From NCBI GenBank assembly GCA_964523705.1, contig CAZFYA010000001.1:185420-249419 (forward strand): a DNA stretch of 64,000 nucleotides, read 5' to 3'. Position numbers and translations under genes: made by a program. The notes under the pieces are model-generated. The model saw nothing but the letters and a program-made list of their open reading frames with translations, did not search any database and had not been told where the DNA came from. Within the stretch, counting starts at the first letter, position 1, and the number at the start of each line of letters is the position of its first letter. Of this stretch, positions 16,532 through 49,380 are shown one piece after another. Source of the DNA: an uncultured Gammaproteobacteria bacterium (GTDB lineage Bacteria > Patescibacteriota > Microgenomatia > Levybacterales > UBA12049).

Positions 16532-16618
16532 AAAGAGATTATAACAAACTTACTCTTATTAGTTACTTTATAATAGTCTGGGAGATGGCTTGAAGCTTAA
16601 GGGAGTTGCGAGAAACTA

Positions 16619-16646
16619 CCGAGGATTTTCCCGCCCCTCGGTTTTT
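16619..16646 (+). terminator. Rho-independent terminator-like hairpin (ACCGAGG-loop-CCTCGGT followed by TTTTT)
   Basis: A 7-bp GC-rich stem with an 11-nt loop and a T-run, in the 16532-16663 spacer. Confidence 0.4.
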
Positions 16647-16663
16647 GTGTTTATAATGTAATT

Positions 16664-17067: not shown

Positions 17068-17247
17068 TTTTTATATCCCTTAAGCGAAAATGTCTTCTCG
17101 TCTTTAGAAAATTTAAGAGAATACTGTATGAAATTTAATCATAAATACAATTACCAAAGACTACATAAAGCGCTTGATTACAAGACACCCAAAGAAGCTA
17201 TATTAGAATACCTTAAAGAGAAAGGAGAAACTGTACGGTATCTATAG
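17068..17247 (+). mobile_element. Degraded insertion-sequence relic: C-terminal fragment of a DDE/rve-type transposase
   Basis: The frame reads ...MKFNHKYNYQRLHKALDYKTPKEAILEYLKEKGETVRYL*, matching the conserved integrase-core C-terminal motif YNxxRxHxALxYKTPxE of IS3/IS481/IS30-type transposases. There is no intact upstream ORF. Confidence 0.5.
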
Positions 17248-17261
17248 GTCCCACACAATGT

Positions 17262-17290
17262 TTGACAAATTATTAAGGTAGACTTATAAT
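17262..17290 (+). promoter_or_regulatory. Consensus sigma70 promoter TTGACA-N17-TATAAT, followed by strong RBS GGAGGGAGGTG, for the RiPP precursor gene
   Basis: TTGACA is at 17262-17267, a 17-nt spacer follows, and TATAAT is at 17285-17290. The RBS is at 17303-17313, 7 nt before the ATG at 17321. Confidence 0.6.
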
Positions 17291-17320
17291 CACCCAAAGT
17301 ACGGAGGGAGGTGAATAAGA

Positions 17321-17506
17321 ATGTCAAATTTAGAAATTCAAAGAAACGCAAGGAACTTAATGGCTGACTCTAAAGAGTTTACAGCTTATTCCAGAAACAA
17401 GAAAGACAAGACTGATTTAACTCCGAATTGTTCAGTTCCGAATTGCGCATTGCCTTGTAAACCACCACCATCACCACCTGGTTGTAAGGCATGTAGAAAA
17501 TCATAG
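17321..17506 (+). CDS. TOMM/LAP-type RiPP precursor peptide (61 aa): hydrophilic leader plus Cys/Ser/Thr/Pro-rich core TPNCSVPNCALPCKPPPSPPGCKACRKS
   Basis: Small ORF with a perfect promoter and RBS, immediately upstream of the YcaO, SagB-dehydrogenase and M16-peptidase genes. It has 5 Cys and 5 Ser/Thr in its last 28 residues. Confidence 0.7.
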   Translation: MSNLEIQRNARNLMADSKEFTAYSRNKKDKTDLTPNCSVPNCALPCKPPPSPPGCKACRKS

Positions 17507-17520
17507 GTTACAAATCTAGA

Positions 17521-17543
17521 TAAGTAATAATTTTTATTACTTA
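17521..17543 (+). terminator. AT-rich perfect hairpin (TAAGTAATAA-TTT-TTATTACTTA) between precursor and modification genes; likely partial terminator/attenuator
   Basis: A 10-bp perfect inverted repeat, 14 nt after the precursor stop and 16 nt before the YcaO start. Confidence 0.4.
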
Positions 17544-17558
17544 GTATTCAATTGATGT

Positions 17559-18884
17559 TTGTTACATATGAAAAACTCTAAATTAGAGAAAGATATGTTG
17601 GCAAATTCTCTAGAAAGAGCTGCTAAATTTGCAAACAATAGTAATTTTATTACAAATATTTATAAGGTTCCCCTATATAATGATGACCCTAAAATATTCG
17701 CCTATTCAGCAACGTACAAACTTAAGTATAAAAATAACGAAGATGTAGCGAATGGATTTTCTTTCTTTAAAAATATTGCCTTGATGAGAGTACTGGGAGA
17801 AGGAGTAGAACGCTATTGCCTAGATCATTTTTCTCCTAAAAACACCTGTTTTTGTAAGGAAAGTGAAGTTAAAACCTATCATTTAAACCCACTTAAAATA
17901 ATTGCTTTTTCATCTAAGCAACTTAAGAACAATAATTTTAATAAGTTTAGAATAGATGATACGTCTCTGTTTGGATGGACTAAAGGAGTATCTCTTACTA
18001 AGAAAAAAGATGTCCTTGTACCTTCTCAACTAGTTATCTTTAACTATGTAACGTTAAAAAATGAACCAAGAATCTTATCCTCAATCTCTACAGGCGCTGC
18101 ATCTGGATTATCGCTAGAAGATGCTTTATATAGGGCAATCTGTGAAATCGTTGAAAGGGATGCATTTATGATAAGCTACCTCAATAAACTTAATTCTCCA
18201 CGATTAGATCTGTTATCAATTGGTGATCCTGCAATCAATAAAATTCTTAATACCTATGCTCGGTATAAACTAGAACTGGCTGTAATTGACATTACAACTA
18301 ATTTACAAATTCCAGCATTTGTCGCCATCACTTTGGACAGAACCGGTATAGGACCTGCTACATCCGTAGGACTTAAAGCAGGATTTAATATTAAAGATGC
18401 TATAATTGGAGCAATTGAAGAATCTCTAATGACTAGGTCTTGGCAACGAGACAACCATACATATAATAATCTTAGGGAACGAAAGCAAAAAAAAGAGATC
18501 CTTCAAGAATTAACAGAAAAAGCTTGTTTCTGGTTTTCTATAGATAAAATCAAGCACCTTGATTTTTGGCTAAATAATAAAAATGTTAAAAAAATTAATA
18601 TCAAAAAATATAAATACTCGAATAGCAATCTAAAAAAAGCGGTTCAAAAATTAACAGCAAAAAAAATGGAAATTATATATGTAGATATAACAACTGATAA
18701 GATTAAACAGTATGGCTTTACTACGGTAAAGGTAATTATCCCTGGATTACATCCTCTACATTTGGACGAAAAACATCCTTATTGGGGAGGAGAACGATTA
18801 TATAATGCTCCTATTGAGATGGGCTTGTTAAAAACAACTAAACATGAAAATGAATTAAATAAAATTCCTCACCCATTCTTATGA
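17559..18884 (+). CDS. YcaO-domain cyclodehydratase (SagD-like, TOMM D-protein)
   Basis: YcaO signature SISTGAASGLSLEDALYRAICEIVERDAF (GxAxG...ExxERD), 441 aa. It has a TTG start with an ATG 3 codons later, and a 4-nt ATGA overlap with the next gene. Confidence 0.8.
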   Translation: MLHMKNSKLEKDMLANSLERAAKFANNSNFITNIYKVPLYNDDPKIFAYSATYKLKYKNNEDVANGFSFFKNIALMRVLGEGVERYCLDHFSPKNTCFCKESEVKTYHLNPLKIIAFSSKQLKNNNFNKFRIDDTSLFGWTKGVSLTKKKDVLVPSQLVIFNYVTLKNEPRILSSISTGAASGLSLEDALYRAICEIVERDAFMISYLNKLNSPRLDLLSIGDPAINKILNTYARYKLELAVIDITTNLQIPAFVAITLDRTGIGPATSVGLKAGFNIKDAIIGAIEESLMTRSWQRDNHTYNNLRERKQKKEILQELTEKACFWFSIDKIKHLDFWLNNKNVKKINIKKYKYSNSNLKKAVQKLTAKKMEIIYVDITTDKIKQYGFTTVKVIIPGLHPLHLDEKHPYWGGERLYNAPIEMGLLKTTKHENELNKIPHPFL

Positions 18885-19666
18885 AAACAAATAACACTAA
18901 GATATTATTGGAAAAAATTGAAGGCAAACAATCTGTTTCAGACAAATTTCATTCTTTTACAAATAACAAAATTTTAGGTGTTAAAATAAACAGAAAATAC
19001 GCTCCCCCTCAATCATGGATAAAAATTCATTTTAAGACTTATCCCCGTCTAAACAGAATTAAACTTAATAGTAAGATAGAAAAAAATAAAACAGGTAAAT
19101 TATCCAACATAATTGAGCAAAGAAAATCTTTTAGAAAGTTTTCAGGTCTATCTATCACAAAAAACGATCTTTCTTATCTATTACTTTATTCATGCGGATT
19201 GATAAGGTTGGGAAAATCATTCGATGATTCCAGAAGGCCTTATCCATCTGCAGGGGCGAGATACCCTTTGGAAATATACCCACTTATACTAAAGTGTGAA
19301 GAAATAGAAAATGGTCTATATCATTACAATGTTAAGGAACATTCATTAGAATTATTGTTAAAAGAAAACTTAAGCAATTGGCTTCTCAAAACTACTGGCG
19401 GAGAAAATTGGATGACAAAAGCTTCTGTGATATTTATAATTACAGGCGTTCTAGATAGAACAAGAGTAAAATATGGAGACCGAGGATATAGATATGTTTT
19501 AATTGAAGCAGGTCATGTGGGACAAAATATTTGTCTTTTATCAACAGACTTGGGATTAGGAAGTTGCGCCATAGGAGGATATATAGATCAGGAGGTAAAT
19601 AAACTATTAGATATTAATTTACAAAAAGAAAATACGTTATATATGTTTGCTGTTGGTAAATTATGA
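18881..19666 (+). CDS. SagB-type FMN-dependent dehydrogenase (McbC-like, nitroreductase fold) for azoline-to-azole oxidation
   Basis: RRPYPSAGARYPLEIYP, GLYHYN, and KYGDRGYRYVLIEAGHVGQNICLLSTDLGLGSCAIGGY. There are ATGA overlaps on both sides. Confidence 0.8.
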   Translation: MKTNNTKILLEKIEGKQSVSDKFHSFTNNKILGVKINRKYAPPQSWIKIHFKTYPRLNRIKLNSKIEKNKTGKLSNIIEQRKSFRKFSGLSITKNDLSYLLLYSCGLIRLGKSFDDSRRPYPSAGARYPLEIYPLILKCEEIENGLYHYNVKEHSLELLLKENLSNWLLKTTGGENWMTKASVIFIITGVLDRTRVKYGDRGYRYVLIEAGHVGQNICLLSTDLGLGSCAIGGYIDQEVNKLLDINLQKENTLYMFAVGKL

Positions 19667-20955
19667 AAATTTCTTATAATAAATACAATCTTCCAAACGG
19701 ACTTACTGTGATTCTTCAGCCCATGCCCTTTGTAAATTCAGTAGTTGTAAATGTTGTAGTGGGAGCAGGTCCACGTTTTGAAACTAAAAAATCTGCTGGT
19801 CTTGCTCATTTTCTCGAACACATGCTTTTTGAAGGGACAAAAAGGTTTCCTACAGCAAAGGACGTTGCCAGAAGAATAGAAAAAATCGGAGGCACTAGCA
19901 GGGCTTTTACTGAAAAGGAATACGTCTCCTATTATACAAAAATCCCAAAACAACATCTTAATGTAGCATTTGATTATTTGTCTGATATTCTATTCAATTC
20001 CTTATTAGAAAGCGACGTAATTGAAAAGGAAAAAAGAATTGTAATAGAGGAGTTGAGAAGATCTGAAGATAATCCAGAAGTAAATATATGGAATTTATGG
20101 CTAGAGTGGATATGGGGCAAGAATCAATCACTTGGTCGTTCTACTATGGGCGACGAAGTAACAATAAAAAAAATAACTAAACAAAAACTGCAAGATTATC
20201 TAGATATGCTTTATCATCCCTCAAATATGGCAATCGTAGTTACAGGAAACTTTTCCATAAAAGAAGCAAAAGAATATATTTTGAAATACTTTGGGAAAAC
20301 TCGATCAAAAAGTGTTCCACTCTTTAAAAGAGTAAGGTTTAATCACAAAAAAATACATACTAAAATTGTCCAATCAGATACAAAACAGGCACAACTGATT
20401 CTTGGATTTGTAACAGATATTTCTTATCATCACAAAGATCGTTTCTCAATACGGGCTATTGCAGATGTTTTAAGTGGAGGAATAAGCTCGCGACTTTCCA
20501 ATAAGCTTATTTATGAATTGGGAATCGCATATTCAGCGTGGGCATACACGTGGATTTTTTCTGATAACGGATTATTCTGTATTTCTGGTGGGTTTTCTCC
20601 TCGAAACTTAAAAAATGCAATAAAAGTGATCTTGGAAGAATTAAATAAATTAAAAAAGCGAAAGGTTGCAGAAACAGAATTAAAAGAAGCAAAAGAAAAA
20701 AACATAGCAGAACTCTTTTTTTCTTTGGAAACACCAGATGCAATGGCAAGTTTATATTCATCACAACAAATTACAGAAAAACAAATCATGACTCCAGAAA
20801 AAATTTCAACAAAAATAGATAAGGTAACAACAGAAGATATGTTGAGAGTGGCTAGAAAATATTTTAATCTTGAAAATTTAAGATTAATAATACATGGTCC
20901 TTTAAAAGAAAAGGAGATAATTTCTATAGAAAAGTTATTAAAACAAATGTCTTAA
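19663..20955 (+). CDS. M16-family (pitrilysin/insulinase-like) zinc metallopeptidase, candidate leader peptidase
   Basis: Inverted zinc motif HFLEHMLFEGT plus the downstream Glu in SRAFTEKEYVSYY, 430 aa. Confidence 0.8.
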   Translation: MKISYNKYNLPNGLTVILQPMPFVNSVVVNVVVGAGPRFETKKSAGLAHFLEHMLFEGTKRFPTAKDVARRIEKIGGTSRAFTEKEYVSYYTKIPKQHLNVAFDYLSDILFNSLLESDVIEKEKRIVIEELRRSEDNPEVNIWNLWLEWIWGKNQSLGRSTMGDEVTIKKITKQKLQDYLDMLYHPSNMAIVVTGNFSIKEAKEYILKYFGKTRSKSVPLFKRVRFNHKKIHTKIVQSDTKQAQLILGFVTDISYHHKDRFSIRAIADVLSGGISSRLSNKLIYELGIAYSAWAYTWIFSDNGLFCISGGFSPRNLKNAIKVILEELNKLKKRKVAETELKEAKEKNIAELFFSLETPDAMASLYSSQQITEKQIMTPEKISTKIDKVTTEDMLRVARKYFNLENLRLIIHGPLKEKEIISIEKLLKQMS

Positions 20956-46847: not shown

Positions 46848-47511
46848 TGTTTATTATTTTAATAAATTCCCGGGGATCAAGACTTGCTCCTCCAACTAAC
46901 ACTCCGCTTATCATATCTTTTTTTGTAAAACTATTAACATTTTCCGAGTTAACACTTCCACCATAAATTACTTTTTCTACATTACTATTCTTTTCCATTA
47001 TTTTTTCTGCTACTTCATTAGCGTTTTTAGGAGTATCGGGTTTCCCGCTTCCGATTGCAAAAACAGGTTCATAAGCAACTATCTTTACCTCTTTTGGAAC
47101 AAAATCCTGTGCATCTTGAACGCAAAATATTGGTTTAAGACTATTTTTAATCGCCTTTTCTACTTTTTGCAAAAGAGCATCATCTTCTTCACCAAAGTTT
47201 TCTCTTCTTTCCGAATGACCAATAATGACAAATTCTGCAAATTCTCTAATTTGCTCCGCATTAATTTCTCCCGTATATGCTCCTTTATCAAACTGGGAAA
47301 CATTTTGTGCCCCTAGTTTAAATGGAAAATTATTTTTCTCCAAAGATGATTTAAAGCATGACAAAAGCGTAAAAGAGGGACAAATAATTATTTCTTTGTC
47401 TTTTAAACCCTCAAGCTCTTTCTTAAAATCAAAAACGTCTTTAAGCCAGTTATTGGCTTCTTTTTTTGTTTTGTTTGATTTCCAATTAGCTATAATTAAT
47501 AATTGCCCCAT
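46840..47511 (-). CDS. tpiA: Triosephosphate isomerase
   Basis: IIANWKSN, VIIGHSERR, AYEPVFAIGSG, GGSV. Confidence 0.85.
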   Translation of the reverse strand: MGQLLIIANWKSNKTKKEANNWLKDVFDFKKELEGLKDKEIIICPSFTLLSCFKSSLEKNNFPFKLGAQNVSQFDKGAYTGEINAEQIREFAEFVIIGHSERRENFGEEDDALLQKVEKAIKNSLKPIFCVQDAQDFVPKEVKIVAYEPVFAIGSGKPDTPKNANEVAEKIMEKNSNVEKVIYGGSVNSENVNSFTKKDMISGVLVGGASLDPREFIKIINNV

Positions 47512-49380
47512 GTGATATCATTATACGGTATGAATAAAGACTTTCTCAACAACCTAAATCAAGAGCAAAAACAAGCAGTTTTAAATACAACCGGCCCAAT
47601 GATTATACTCGCAGGAGCCGGATCCGGAAAAACAAGAGTTTTAACTTATAAAGTTGTTTGGTTAATTTCTCAAAACATCACCAACCCTGAAAACATTCTT
47701 ATGATAACTTTTACCAATAAAGCTGCTAATGAAATGAAAGAAAGAGTTGAAAAATTTCTTAATAAAAACAGTTTAAGCGTAAGATCAAAGCCACTAATCT
47801 CAACCTTTCATTCCCTTTGTGCAAAGTTGCTTAGAATTGAAGGAAAATATGTTGGTCTTGATTCAAATTATTTAATTTATGATGAGCAAGATCAAAAAGA
47901 AGCAATAAAAGAAGTACTAAATTTATTAAACATTTCAAATAAAGAATTTAAGCCTGCTTCAATTTTAGCAACAATTTCACAAGCTAAAAATGAGCTGATT
48001 TCAGAAAACGAGTATCCAAATTATGCCAGAGGACATTTTCAACAAATAGTTGCTAAGGTTTATCATGCTTATCAAAACCTTTTAAAAGAAAACAATGCTT
48101 TAGATTTTGACGATTTACTTTTAAAAACAATTGAGCTTTTTAAAAATAACCCTGATGTTTTGGAAAAATATCAAAATAAATTTAAGTATATTTTAGTTGA
48201 TGAATACCAAGATACTAATCATGCTCAATACGTGCTAACAAAAATGCTGTCTTTGAAATGGAACAATCTTTGTGTTGTCGGTGATTTTTCTCAAAGCATA
48301 TATAGCTGGAGAGGGGCTGATTTTCAAAACTTAGTAAAATTTAATAAAGATTTTAAAAACGTTAAAACTTTTAACCTATCACAAAACTATCGCTCCACAC
48401 AAAAAATACTGGATGCATCTTTTTCAGTAATTTCTAAAAACAGCAGTCACCCGATTCTAAAGCTTTGGACCGAAAACAAAAGCGGAGATGAAATTATGCT
48501 TTTTGAAGCAAGAAATGAACATAATGAAGCAGAATTTATTATTGAACAAGTTGCTTACTTAAAATATCAGCAAAAAGAACTTAAGTTTTCAGATATCGCA
48601 ATTCTTTACAGAACAAATGCTCAATCAAGAGTTATTGAGGAGGTTTTTTTGCATCATGGAATTCCTTACGTTTTAATTGGAGGAACAAGATTTTATGAAA
48701 GAAAGGAAATTAAAGATATACTTGCTTATTTAAGATTAATAGCAAATCCAAAAGATTCAGTTTCAAAAAAAAGAATTGAAAAACTAGGTAAAAAAAGATT
48801 TGATAAATTCTTAGAATTTAAAGATAAAAATTATGAAATGGATGAAACTATAAAAATTATGGATAAAGTAATTAAAGCAACTGATTATTTATCTTTTTAT
48901 GACGAAAAAGATGAGGAAGACTTACAAAGATTGGAAAATATTAAAGAATTAAGATCAGTAGCAATTGAATTTCCCAAAATTAATGAATTTTTAGAAAACG
49001 TTTCACTAGTTGAACAAGAACAACTTCCAGATCATCCTCAAAAAGATAAAAAGAAAAAAAATGCCGTAAATTTAATGACACTTCACGCGGCAAAAGGATT
49101 AGAGTTTTCAATTGTTTTTATAATCGGAATGGAAGAAGGACTTTTTCCGCACAGTAGATCCTTAATGAATAAGGACGAACTTGAAGAAGAAAGAAGACTT
49201 TGTTATGTTGGAATGACAAGAGCAAAACAAAAACTCTATTTAACTTATTCTAAAAAGAGATTGTTTTTTGGACAAAGAACAAATAATATGGTTTCAAGGT
49301 TTATTTTTGACTTACCGGAAGAAATTCTATCAAATAATCTTTCCTTTTCGCAAAAGGAAGATGTTCCTGAATTTTTATGA
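47503..49380 (+). CDS. UvrD/PcrA-family ATP-dependent DNA helicase
   Basis: Walker A AGAGSGKTRVLTYKV, motif II VDEYQDTN, and C-terminal helicase motifs (LHAAKGLEF, VGMTRAK). Confidence 0.85.
   Translation: MPHVISLYGMNKDFLNNLNQEQKQAVLNTTGPMIILAGAGSGKTRVLTYKVVWLISQNITNPENILMITFTNKAANEMKERVEKFLNKNSLSVRSKPLISTFHSLCAKLLRIEGKYVGLDSNYLIYDEQDQKEAIKEVLNLLNISNKEFKPASILATISQAKNELISENEYPNYARGHFQQIVAKVYHAYQNLLKENNALDFDDLLLKTIELFKNNPDVLEKYQNKFKYILVDEYQDTNHAQYVLTKMLSLKWNNLCVVGDFSQSIYSWRGADFQNLVKFNKDFKNVKTFNLSQNYRSTQKILDASFSVISKNSSHPILKLWTENKSGDEIMLFEARNEHNEAEFIIEQVAYLKYQQKELKFSDIAILYRTNAQSRVIEEVFLHHGIPYVLIGGTRFYERKEIKDILAYLRLIANPKDSVSKKRIEKLGKKRFDKFLEFKDKNYEMDETIKIMDKVIKATDYLSFYDEKDEEDLQRLENIKELRSVAIEFPKINEFLENVSLVEQEQLPDHPQKDKKKKNAVNLMTLHAAKGLEFSIVFIIGMEEGLFPHSRSLMNKDELEEERRLCYVGMTRAKQKLYLTYSKKRLFFGQRTNNMVSRFIFDLPEEILSNNLSFSQKEDVPEFL

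Follow-up and report, generated by a model that had tools for sequence, protein, structure and literature searches.

A RiPP precursor gene with a consensus promoter, an extended Shine-Dalgarno site and a downstream hairpin of doubtful function in a Patescibacteria/CPR-like genome

A four-gene RiPP cassette between housekeeping genes

The stretch of DNA analyzed here, which we call the window, is 64 kb long with a G+C content of about 30%, and its host genome is Patescibacteria/CPR-like, that is, from an uncultured ultra-small bacterium. Flanked by housekeeping genes on both sides, HrcA-GrpE-DnaK upstream and MetRS-TatD downstream, it contains a cassette that encodes a precursor peptide, a SagD-type YcaO protein, a SagB-type dehydrogenase and an M16 peptidase, in this order. 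The region 17259-17545 probably acts as the expression module of this self-contained four-gene RiPP cassette. The features of the locus are the following, all on the + strand:

17262..17267, +, -35 hexamer TTGACA, read directly
17285..17290, +, -10 hexamer TATAAT, read directly, behind a 17-nt spacer (17268-17284)
17303..17313, +, extended Shine-Dalgarno site GGAGGGAGGTG, 7 nt (17314-17320) before the ATG at 17321
17321..17506, +, precursor peptide gene, 61 aa, with ATG at 17321 and TAG at 17504-17506
17521..17543, +, perfect 10-bp AT-rich hairpin with a 3-nt loop, function doubtful: TAAGTAATAA (17521-17530)-TTT-TTATTACTTA (17534-17543)
17568..18884, +, SagD-family YcaO cyclodehydratase, 438 aa (PF02624, 1.5e-55; TIGR03604, 271.5 bits at a cut-off of 219.25 bits)
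18881..19666, +, SagB-type FMN dehydrogenase, 261 aa (TIGR03605, 155.6 bits at a cut-off of 78.4 bits)
19663..20955, +, M16 (insulinase-type) peptidase, 430 aa (PF00675 and PF05193)

The last three genes are chained by ATGA overlaps, one between the YcaO stop and the SagB start and another between the SagB stop and the M16 start, and the M16 peptidase is presumed to be the leader peptidase. Relatives of the YcaO protein occur in Patescibacteria/CPR metagenome-assembled genomes and in groundwater metagenomes, none of them with a protein identity above 65% (about 48-65% in the related loci). The precursor of the window was found on one other contig only, which is base-for-base identical.

The cassette combines a SagD-family YcaO protein and a SagB-type dehydrogenase with an adjacent precursor that has a leader and a Cys-rich core, while the E1-like or Ocin-ThiF-like leader-binding partner (the SagC/McbB equivalent) is missing, both from the cassette and from its neighbours up to about 6 kb away in each direction; it is also absent from the conserved gene set of the related loci. 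Judged by its gene content, the cassette is a LAP/TOMM-type cluster of the kind already published for CPR bacteria, with a predicted azol(in)e product. Sharrar et al. 2020 (mBio; PMC7298704) described 110 LAP clusters in 93 CPR genomes. These clusters consist of the same genes, a precursor, a YcaO protein, a nitroreductase-type dehydrogenase and a peptidase, the likeness being one of gene set, and their precursor is given as about 84 aa, which compares to 84-86 aa for several of the related precursors here (PMC7298704). The closest solved YcaO structures are those of the cyanobactin heterocyclases MusD, LynD and TruD, whose YcaO domain is homologous (E-values 2e-21 to 7e-19). These enzymes are fusions of about 780 aa with an N-terminal E1-like leader-binding half, and the YcaO protein of the window (438 aa) aligns to their C-terminal halves only. 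With regard to the recognition of the leader motif described below, the usual leader-binding subunit (E1-like/Ocin-ThiF-like) was found neither in the cassette nor among its neighbours or in relatives.

The precursor itself has a leader with the sequence ADSKEF and a core, NCSVPNCALPCKPPPSPPGCKACRKS, that contains six Cys. Pfam and NCBIfam hold no family that matches it, Rfam gives no match at the locus, and searches with the single sequence returned the precursor and one relative, nothing more. A family emerges when the loci are compared: 11 family ORFs were found in 10 related loci, where they adjoin YcaO or, in a rearranged variant, M16. A profile from 12 locus-derived precursors then retrieved 20 unnamed proteins among 5.8 billion, and five further loci were added from these profile matches. 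The comparisons below cover 16 related precursor genes, or 17 with that of the window. Left out were three loci with YcaO proteins 58% identical to that of the window, namely L001, in which the presumed precursor region is N-masked, and L010 and L011, whose contigs are cut there. Across the family the leader motif D[AST][KR]EF is conserved and the C-terminal core is rich in Cys and Pro. Given this motif, this core and the adjacency to YcaO or M16 in 16 related loci, the 61-aa ORF is a genuine RiPP precursor gene.

Some further observations concern the family and its surroundings. The core region of the precursor gene carries a 15-nt tandem duplication at 17422-17451 (+), TCCGAATTGTTCAGT / TCCGAATTGCGCATT, in which the repeated unit encodes the pentapeptides PNCSV and PNCAL; this suggests that the core was expanded by copying a Cys-containing unit. 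In the rearranged cassette (L012:535-4171, L013:868-5460, L001:3848-7314) the order is precursor, M16, a GNAT-like acetyltransferase of 255-258 aa, YcaO and SagB. Upstream of the cassette in the window lies the C-terminus of a decayed transposase, FSSLENLREYCMKFNHKYNYQRLHKALDYKTPKEA (17095-17247, +; rve_3 E = 2.4e-4, below the Pfam cut-off), with degenerate pieces extending back to about 16960 and an end 15 nt upstream of the -35 hexamer. The genes next to the cassette vary by locus and include recA, SHMT, SpoU and IspD. The transposase remnant, together with neighbours that differ in every relative, suggests that the cassette is horizontally mobile.

Promoter and Shine-Dalgarno site of the precursor gene

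The initial annotation of this DNA, made from its letters, had noted a perfect sigma70 promoter (TTGACA-17-TATAAT) at 17262-17290, and both its coordinates and its 12/12 match are right. No other 12/12 match exists in the 64-kb window, in which 0.06 would be expected from shuffles, and this promoter ranks top in a consensus promoter scan of the window. Given the spacing customary between a -10 hexamer and the first transcribed base, transcription would start near 17296-17298. TTGAC[AT] is found upstream of 12 of the 17 precursor genes, 59-100 nt before the start codon, and in most related loci the distance from the -35 hexamer to the start codon is 59-66 nt. A match of at least 10/12 to the promoter consensus is present in 9/17 precursor upstream regions, as compared to 4.8% of random segments. 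These comparisons support a genuine and selected promoter, whose activity is predicted.

Between the precursor and YcaO genes, the + strand of the spacer (17507-17567) contains no promoter match of at least 9/12, so that co-transcription of the precursor with the enzyme genes would be the simplest reading. We also considered that the promoter might be the outward-facing end of the decayed transposase upstream. This was rejected, as the distance of the -35 hexamer from the start codon is the same in relatives with unrelated neighbours; since the neighbours differ between loci, promoter and Shine-Dalgarno site belong to the cassette and not to the transposase fragment. At one locus with the rearranged cassette (L013), an (AAG)7 repeat lies between the precursor promoter and the Shine-Dalgarno (SD) site.

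The SD site had been described as unusually long and placed 7 nt before the ATG, which is borne out by an 11-nt match to the canonical anti-SD. The corresponding duplex has an energy of -18.2 kcal/mol, calculated against the canonical anti-SD; the host 16S 3' end lies outside the window. By this measure the precursor ranks first among 59 genes, although every other gene was scored at whichever of its first six possible starts paired best, and the earlier view that this is the strongest translation signal in the window holds. The statement that most other genes have a weak SD or none agrees with a median of about -5 kcal/mol in the window. Next in strength come the SD sites of MscL (-16.5), then of a HEAT-repeat protein, MurJ and others, and those of DnaK and GrpE reach -9.3 and -9.1. 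The sequence GGAGGTGA is found only twice in the window, each time ahead of a gene. The predicted 5' UTR is short (about 24 nt) and unstructured, with a folding energy of no more than -2.3 kcal/mol for the initiation region 17297-17340.

This site is a constant feature of the family. RGGAGGTGA stands 5-7 nt before the start in all 17 precursor genes, with SD energies from -13.0 to -18.7 and a median of -18.1 kcal/mol. Other genes of the same loci (n = 123) have a median of -5.1 kcal/mol, and 3% of them are at -13 or lower; the difference is significant in a Mann-Whitney test (p = 3e-11), in which the loci count as separate although they are not phylogenetically independent. A genuine and selected SD site of the precursor gene is thereby supported. 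For its function another point needs to be taken into account. The anti-SD motif is missing in some CPR lineages (PMC9297842), and no rRNA gene is found in the window. With the host 16S end lying elsewhere and such losses reported for CPR bacteria, the case that the SD functions in this host draws on its conservation and on the presence of such sites before DnaK, GrpE and MscL. At one related locus (L003) two precursor genes stand in tandem, each behind a strong SD.

The hairpin between precursor and YcaO

Following the precursor stop by 14 nt (17507-17520), the perfect 10-bp hairpin is present just as first described, with the YcaO ATG another 24 nt further on. It had been interpreted as a leaky terminator, and negligible stability had been named as the finding that would speak against this. 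At 37 °C its folding energy is -6.4 kcal/mol, with z = -2.44 and pairs that form with a mean probability of 0.94; at 15 °C the energy is -10.8 kcal/mol. The hairpin can thus form; the terminator claim is weakened nonetheless, for other reasons. The stem is made of nine A-U pairs and one G-C pair. The tail behind it, GUAUUCAAUUGA, has 3 U in its first 8 nt with no run longer than 2, and there is no U-tract (GUAUUCAA). Its T-tail score, by the formula used here, is 1.2, as compared to 4.6 for a terminator-like element at 16618-16641. A terminator scan of the window, which requires at least 3 G-C pairs, does not list the hairpin at 17521-17543.

How unusual is such a structure in DNA of this composition? 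Perfect hairpins of at least 10 bp occur twice in the window, where 2.2 are expected. The energy of this one lies within the top 2.7% of 30-nt windows. A fold at least as good is seen in 13.8% of 61-nt segments overall; the share is 3.5% when only segments just as rich in A+T are counted, and 6.1% when the spacer itself is shuffled. The hairpin is statistically marginal and near chance (p about 0.04-0.06). The window contains no other copy of the palindrome, and the repeats around the locus are nothing meaningful. The 61-nt spacer as a whole folds like its shuffles (z = -0.68). A fold of 17500-17575 reaches -13.6 kcal/mol (z = -1.9) by pairing 17501-17516, around the precursor stop, with 17557-17571, around the start of YcaO; such a larger structure, joining the precursor stop to the YcaO start, was rejected, as neither z value is significant.

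No equivalent hairpin exists in the 16 related loci, where, L032 aside, spacer folds are no more stable than those of shuffled sequence. Between the precursor and the gene that follows it, these relatives have 10 to 125 nt, and the frequent gaps of 10-35 nt leave a terminator no room. Some of the loci with long gaps have hairpins of their own, namely L032 (z = -2.4) and L003 and L041, where weak stems stand beside U runs. Of what characterizes an intrinsic terminator, the hairpin of the window thus has the position, while a G+C-containing stem, a U-tract and conservation in relatives are all lacking. The interpretation as a leaky terminator loses its footing on these grounds, namely the single G-C pair, the lack of a U-tract, the silence of the terminator scan, the marginal statistics and the missing counterpart in relatives. 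The hairpin does not resemble a canonical intrinsic terminator and is most likely incidental or at most accessory. Since the relatives are distant, it may still represent a lineage-specific attenuator.

The other gene ends of the window provide some context. Among its eight convergent gene pairs, seven either abut or share 4 nt, as at 32342-33457/33454-35184 and at 43570-45762/45759-46847. Hairpin terminators would have no space there and so do not seem to be general at gene ends here, which suggests another mode of termination in this genome. At the end of the cassette, too, no stable stem was found. A canonical-looking terminator does occur at 16618-16652 (+), where the stem CCGAGG/CCTCGG is followed by TTTTTGTGTTT. 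It lies in non-coding DNA some 620 nt ahead of the promoter, with no obvious + strand gene end there, and might insulate the cassette or belong to the decayed mobile element. The sole Rfam match at gathering score in the window is RF03531, a Clostridioides difficile sRNA within a helicase gene (49159-49256, +; 69.7 bits). As this match falls within the ORF 47503-49380, it probably reflects conserved coding sequence and not an sRNA.

Setting the ratio of precursor to enzymes

RiPP operons commonly make far more precursor than enzymes, and the question is at which level this excess is set. We consider it probable that it is set mainly at translation initiation and not at termination, with the enzymes kept low and coupled. 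A single strong sigma-70-type promoter (17262-17290) would drive all four genes, with a transcript that begins some 24 nt ahead of the precursor ATG. The leader of this transcript would be short, unstructured and essentially one maximal SD, so that the 61-aa precursor would be translated very efficiently. The enzyme genes, which are without SD and chained by ATGA overlaps, would be translated at low and mutually matched levels. It is this difference between an SD-led precursor and coupled enzymes without SD that would make the excess arise at translation initiation rather than at termination. The YcaO ATG has no SD (duplex -0.2 kcal/mol), and in all loci the SD of the gene after the precursor is weaker than -8 kcal/mol, usually weaker than -4. 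Li et al. are said to have found by ribosome profiling, in Cell in 2014, that stoichiometry within operons is achieved through differential translation initiation. The arrangement seen here resembles that principle, with a predicted single transcript, a maximal SD on the precursor, enzymes without SD and ATGA coupling; the principle is a general one and its application to this cassette a prediction.

The alternatives give the hairpin a role. In a leaky terminator or attenuator, most transcripts would end after the precursor and a minority would read into YcaO, SagB and M16; as the stem begins 14 nt past the stop, a variant of this idea lets the terminating ribosome modulate it. Its position close behind the stop, on the coding strand of a spacer of 61 nt, is right for such an element. 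The structure forms with high probability at 37 °C as at 15 °C (-6.4 and -10.8 kcal/mol) and is a little less common than chance predicts in a spacer so rich in A+T. Without a separate YcaO promoter, any termination here would necessarily be partial. Two known systems bear comparison. The streptolysin S operon (sagA to sagB-I) likewise begins with the precursor gene under its own strong promoter and continues with SagB-type and SagD-type genes. Its sagA gene is reportedly followed by a canonical Rho-independent terminator, an observation attributed to Nizet et al. in 2000. In this operon the precursor transcript is far above those of the downstream genes, with some read-through from sagA into sagB (PMC2765633), which serves as a precedent. 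Compared with streptolysin S, the stem in the window has one G-C pair and no U-tract, and the cassette lacks a SagC (E1-like) gene and carries an M16 peptidase in place of the CaaX-type protease and ABC transporter. Lantibiotic structural genes of the nisA, spaS and epiA type show the same order as here, a small gene, an inverted repeat and then the modification genes. Limited read-through in these operons is the textbook route to precursor excess, and their stems contain G+C, have U-rich tails and are supported by experiment. Measured against them, the hairpin of the window fails on both features of sequence and is not conserved. With one G-C pair in ten, a 3-nt loop, no U-tract, a T-tail score of 1.2, ordinary absolute stability, no entry in the terminator scan and no equivalent in 16 related loci, many of which have gaps of 10-35 nt, a leaky terminator is unlikely.

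A stem in this place might also act after transcription. Following endonucleolytic cleavage it could keep 3'-to-5' exonucleases off the end of the short precursor mRNA, so that the precursor message would outlive that of the enzymes. Such stems need no U-tract, this one is able to form just where the precursor cistron ends, and structural-gene transcripts of differing stability have been described for several lantibiotic operons; yet a weak stem that is marginal in its statistics and not conserved in relatives makes protection improbable. Alternatively, the hairpin or the larger fold would tune YcaO translation by blocking re-initiation or by covering the AUG of YcaO. In the predicted structure of 17500-17575 (-13.6 kcal/mol) the stop-codon region does pair with this AUG, YcaO has no SD, and the 10-35 nt gaps of the relatives fit a coupling of termination and re-initiation. 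Against this stand the lack of significance of the larger fold (z = -1.9, or -0.68 for the spacer proper) and of any comparable structure in relatives, and we regard such tuning as quite improbable. Finally, the perfect 10-3-10 dyad symmetry would also suit a DNA operator, in which the 23-bp perfect palindrome is bound by a dimeric regulator. However, the heat-shock repressor HrcA is the only regulator encoded in the cassette and the 6 kb that flank it in each direction, the palindrome has no second copy in the window and is not conserved, and it is located downstream of the promoter, inside the transcription unit. An operator is therefore scarcely credible.

One could also combine a hairpin with control at translation initiation. 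The consensus promoter and the maximal SD would then form a portable module that sets the ratio through an SD-led first cistron and SD-less cistrons depending on re-initiation, with the hairpin as an added brake. If this were true, the hairpin would slow re-initiating ribosomes or act as a non-canonical attenuator, unlike a classical leaky terminator, and the cassette would carry its own high-expression module through CPR lineages in which most genes show little or no SD pairing. This full combination, brake included, is decidedly unlikely.

The comparison of loci sets the selected features apart from the others: an SD is retained in 17/17 and a strong promoter match in 9/17, and the hairpin is not retained. 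The conserved SD and the D[AST][KR]EF motif come from the present analysis; the accessible portion of the earlier CPR survey has nothing on promoters, SD sites or hairpins (PMC7298704). What is new, within the reach of sequence comparison, is evidence for a portable module of promoter and maximal SD and for the D[AST][KR]EF precursor family; the arrangement is otherwise ordinary and its cluster type already published. For heterologous expression the native design would give a simple rule, namely to translate the precursor strongly and to make the enzymes in small, coupled amounts; there would be no need to retain a terminator separating precursor from enzymes. On a more general level, genomes that are poor in SD sites would still have a full-strength SD for genes that call for very high expression, which bears on the reported loss of the anti-SD in some CPR lineages (PMC9297842).

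There is also a second, unrelated CPR precursor family with the core CxCxGGCNCVGRC, which lies beside more distant YcaO genes (L005:5748-5972, L019:1136-1294 and L023:1141-1332; also in L024 and L025). None of these precursors has a Shine-Dalgarno site, and their 5' leaders are AU-rich. The maximal SD is thus a trait of the D[AST][KR]EF family or of its hosts, and not of all CPR LAP precursors. Upstream of two members of the second family (L005 and L023), TTGACA and TATAAT are present at non-standard spacings of 15 and 20 nt.
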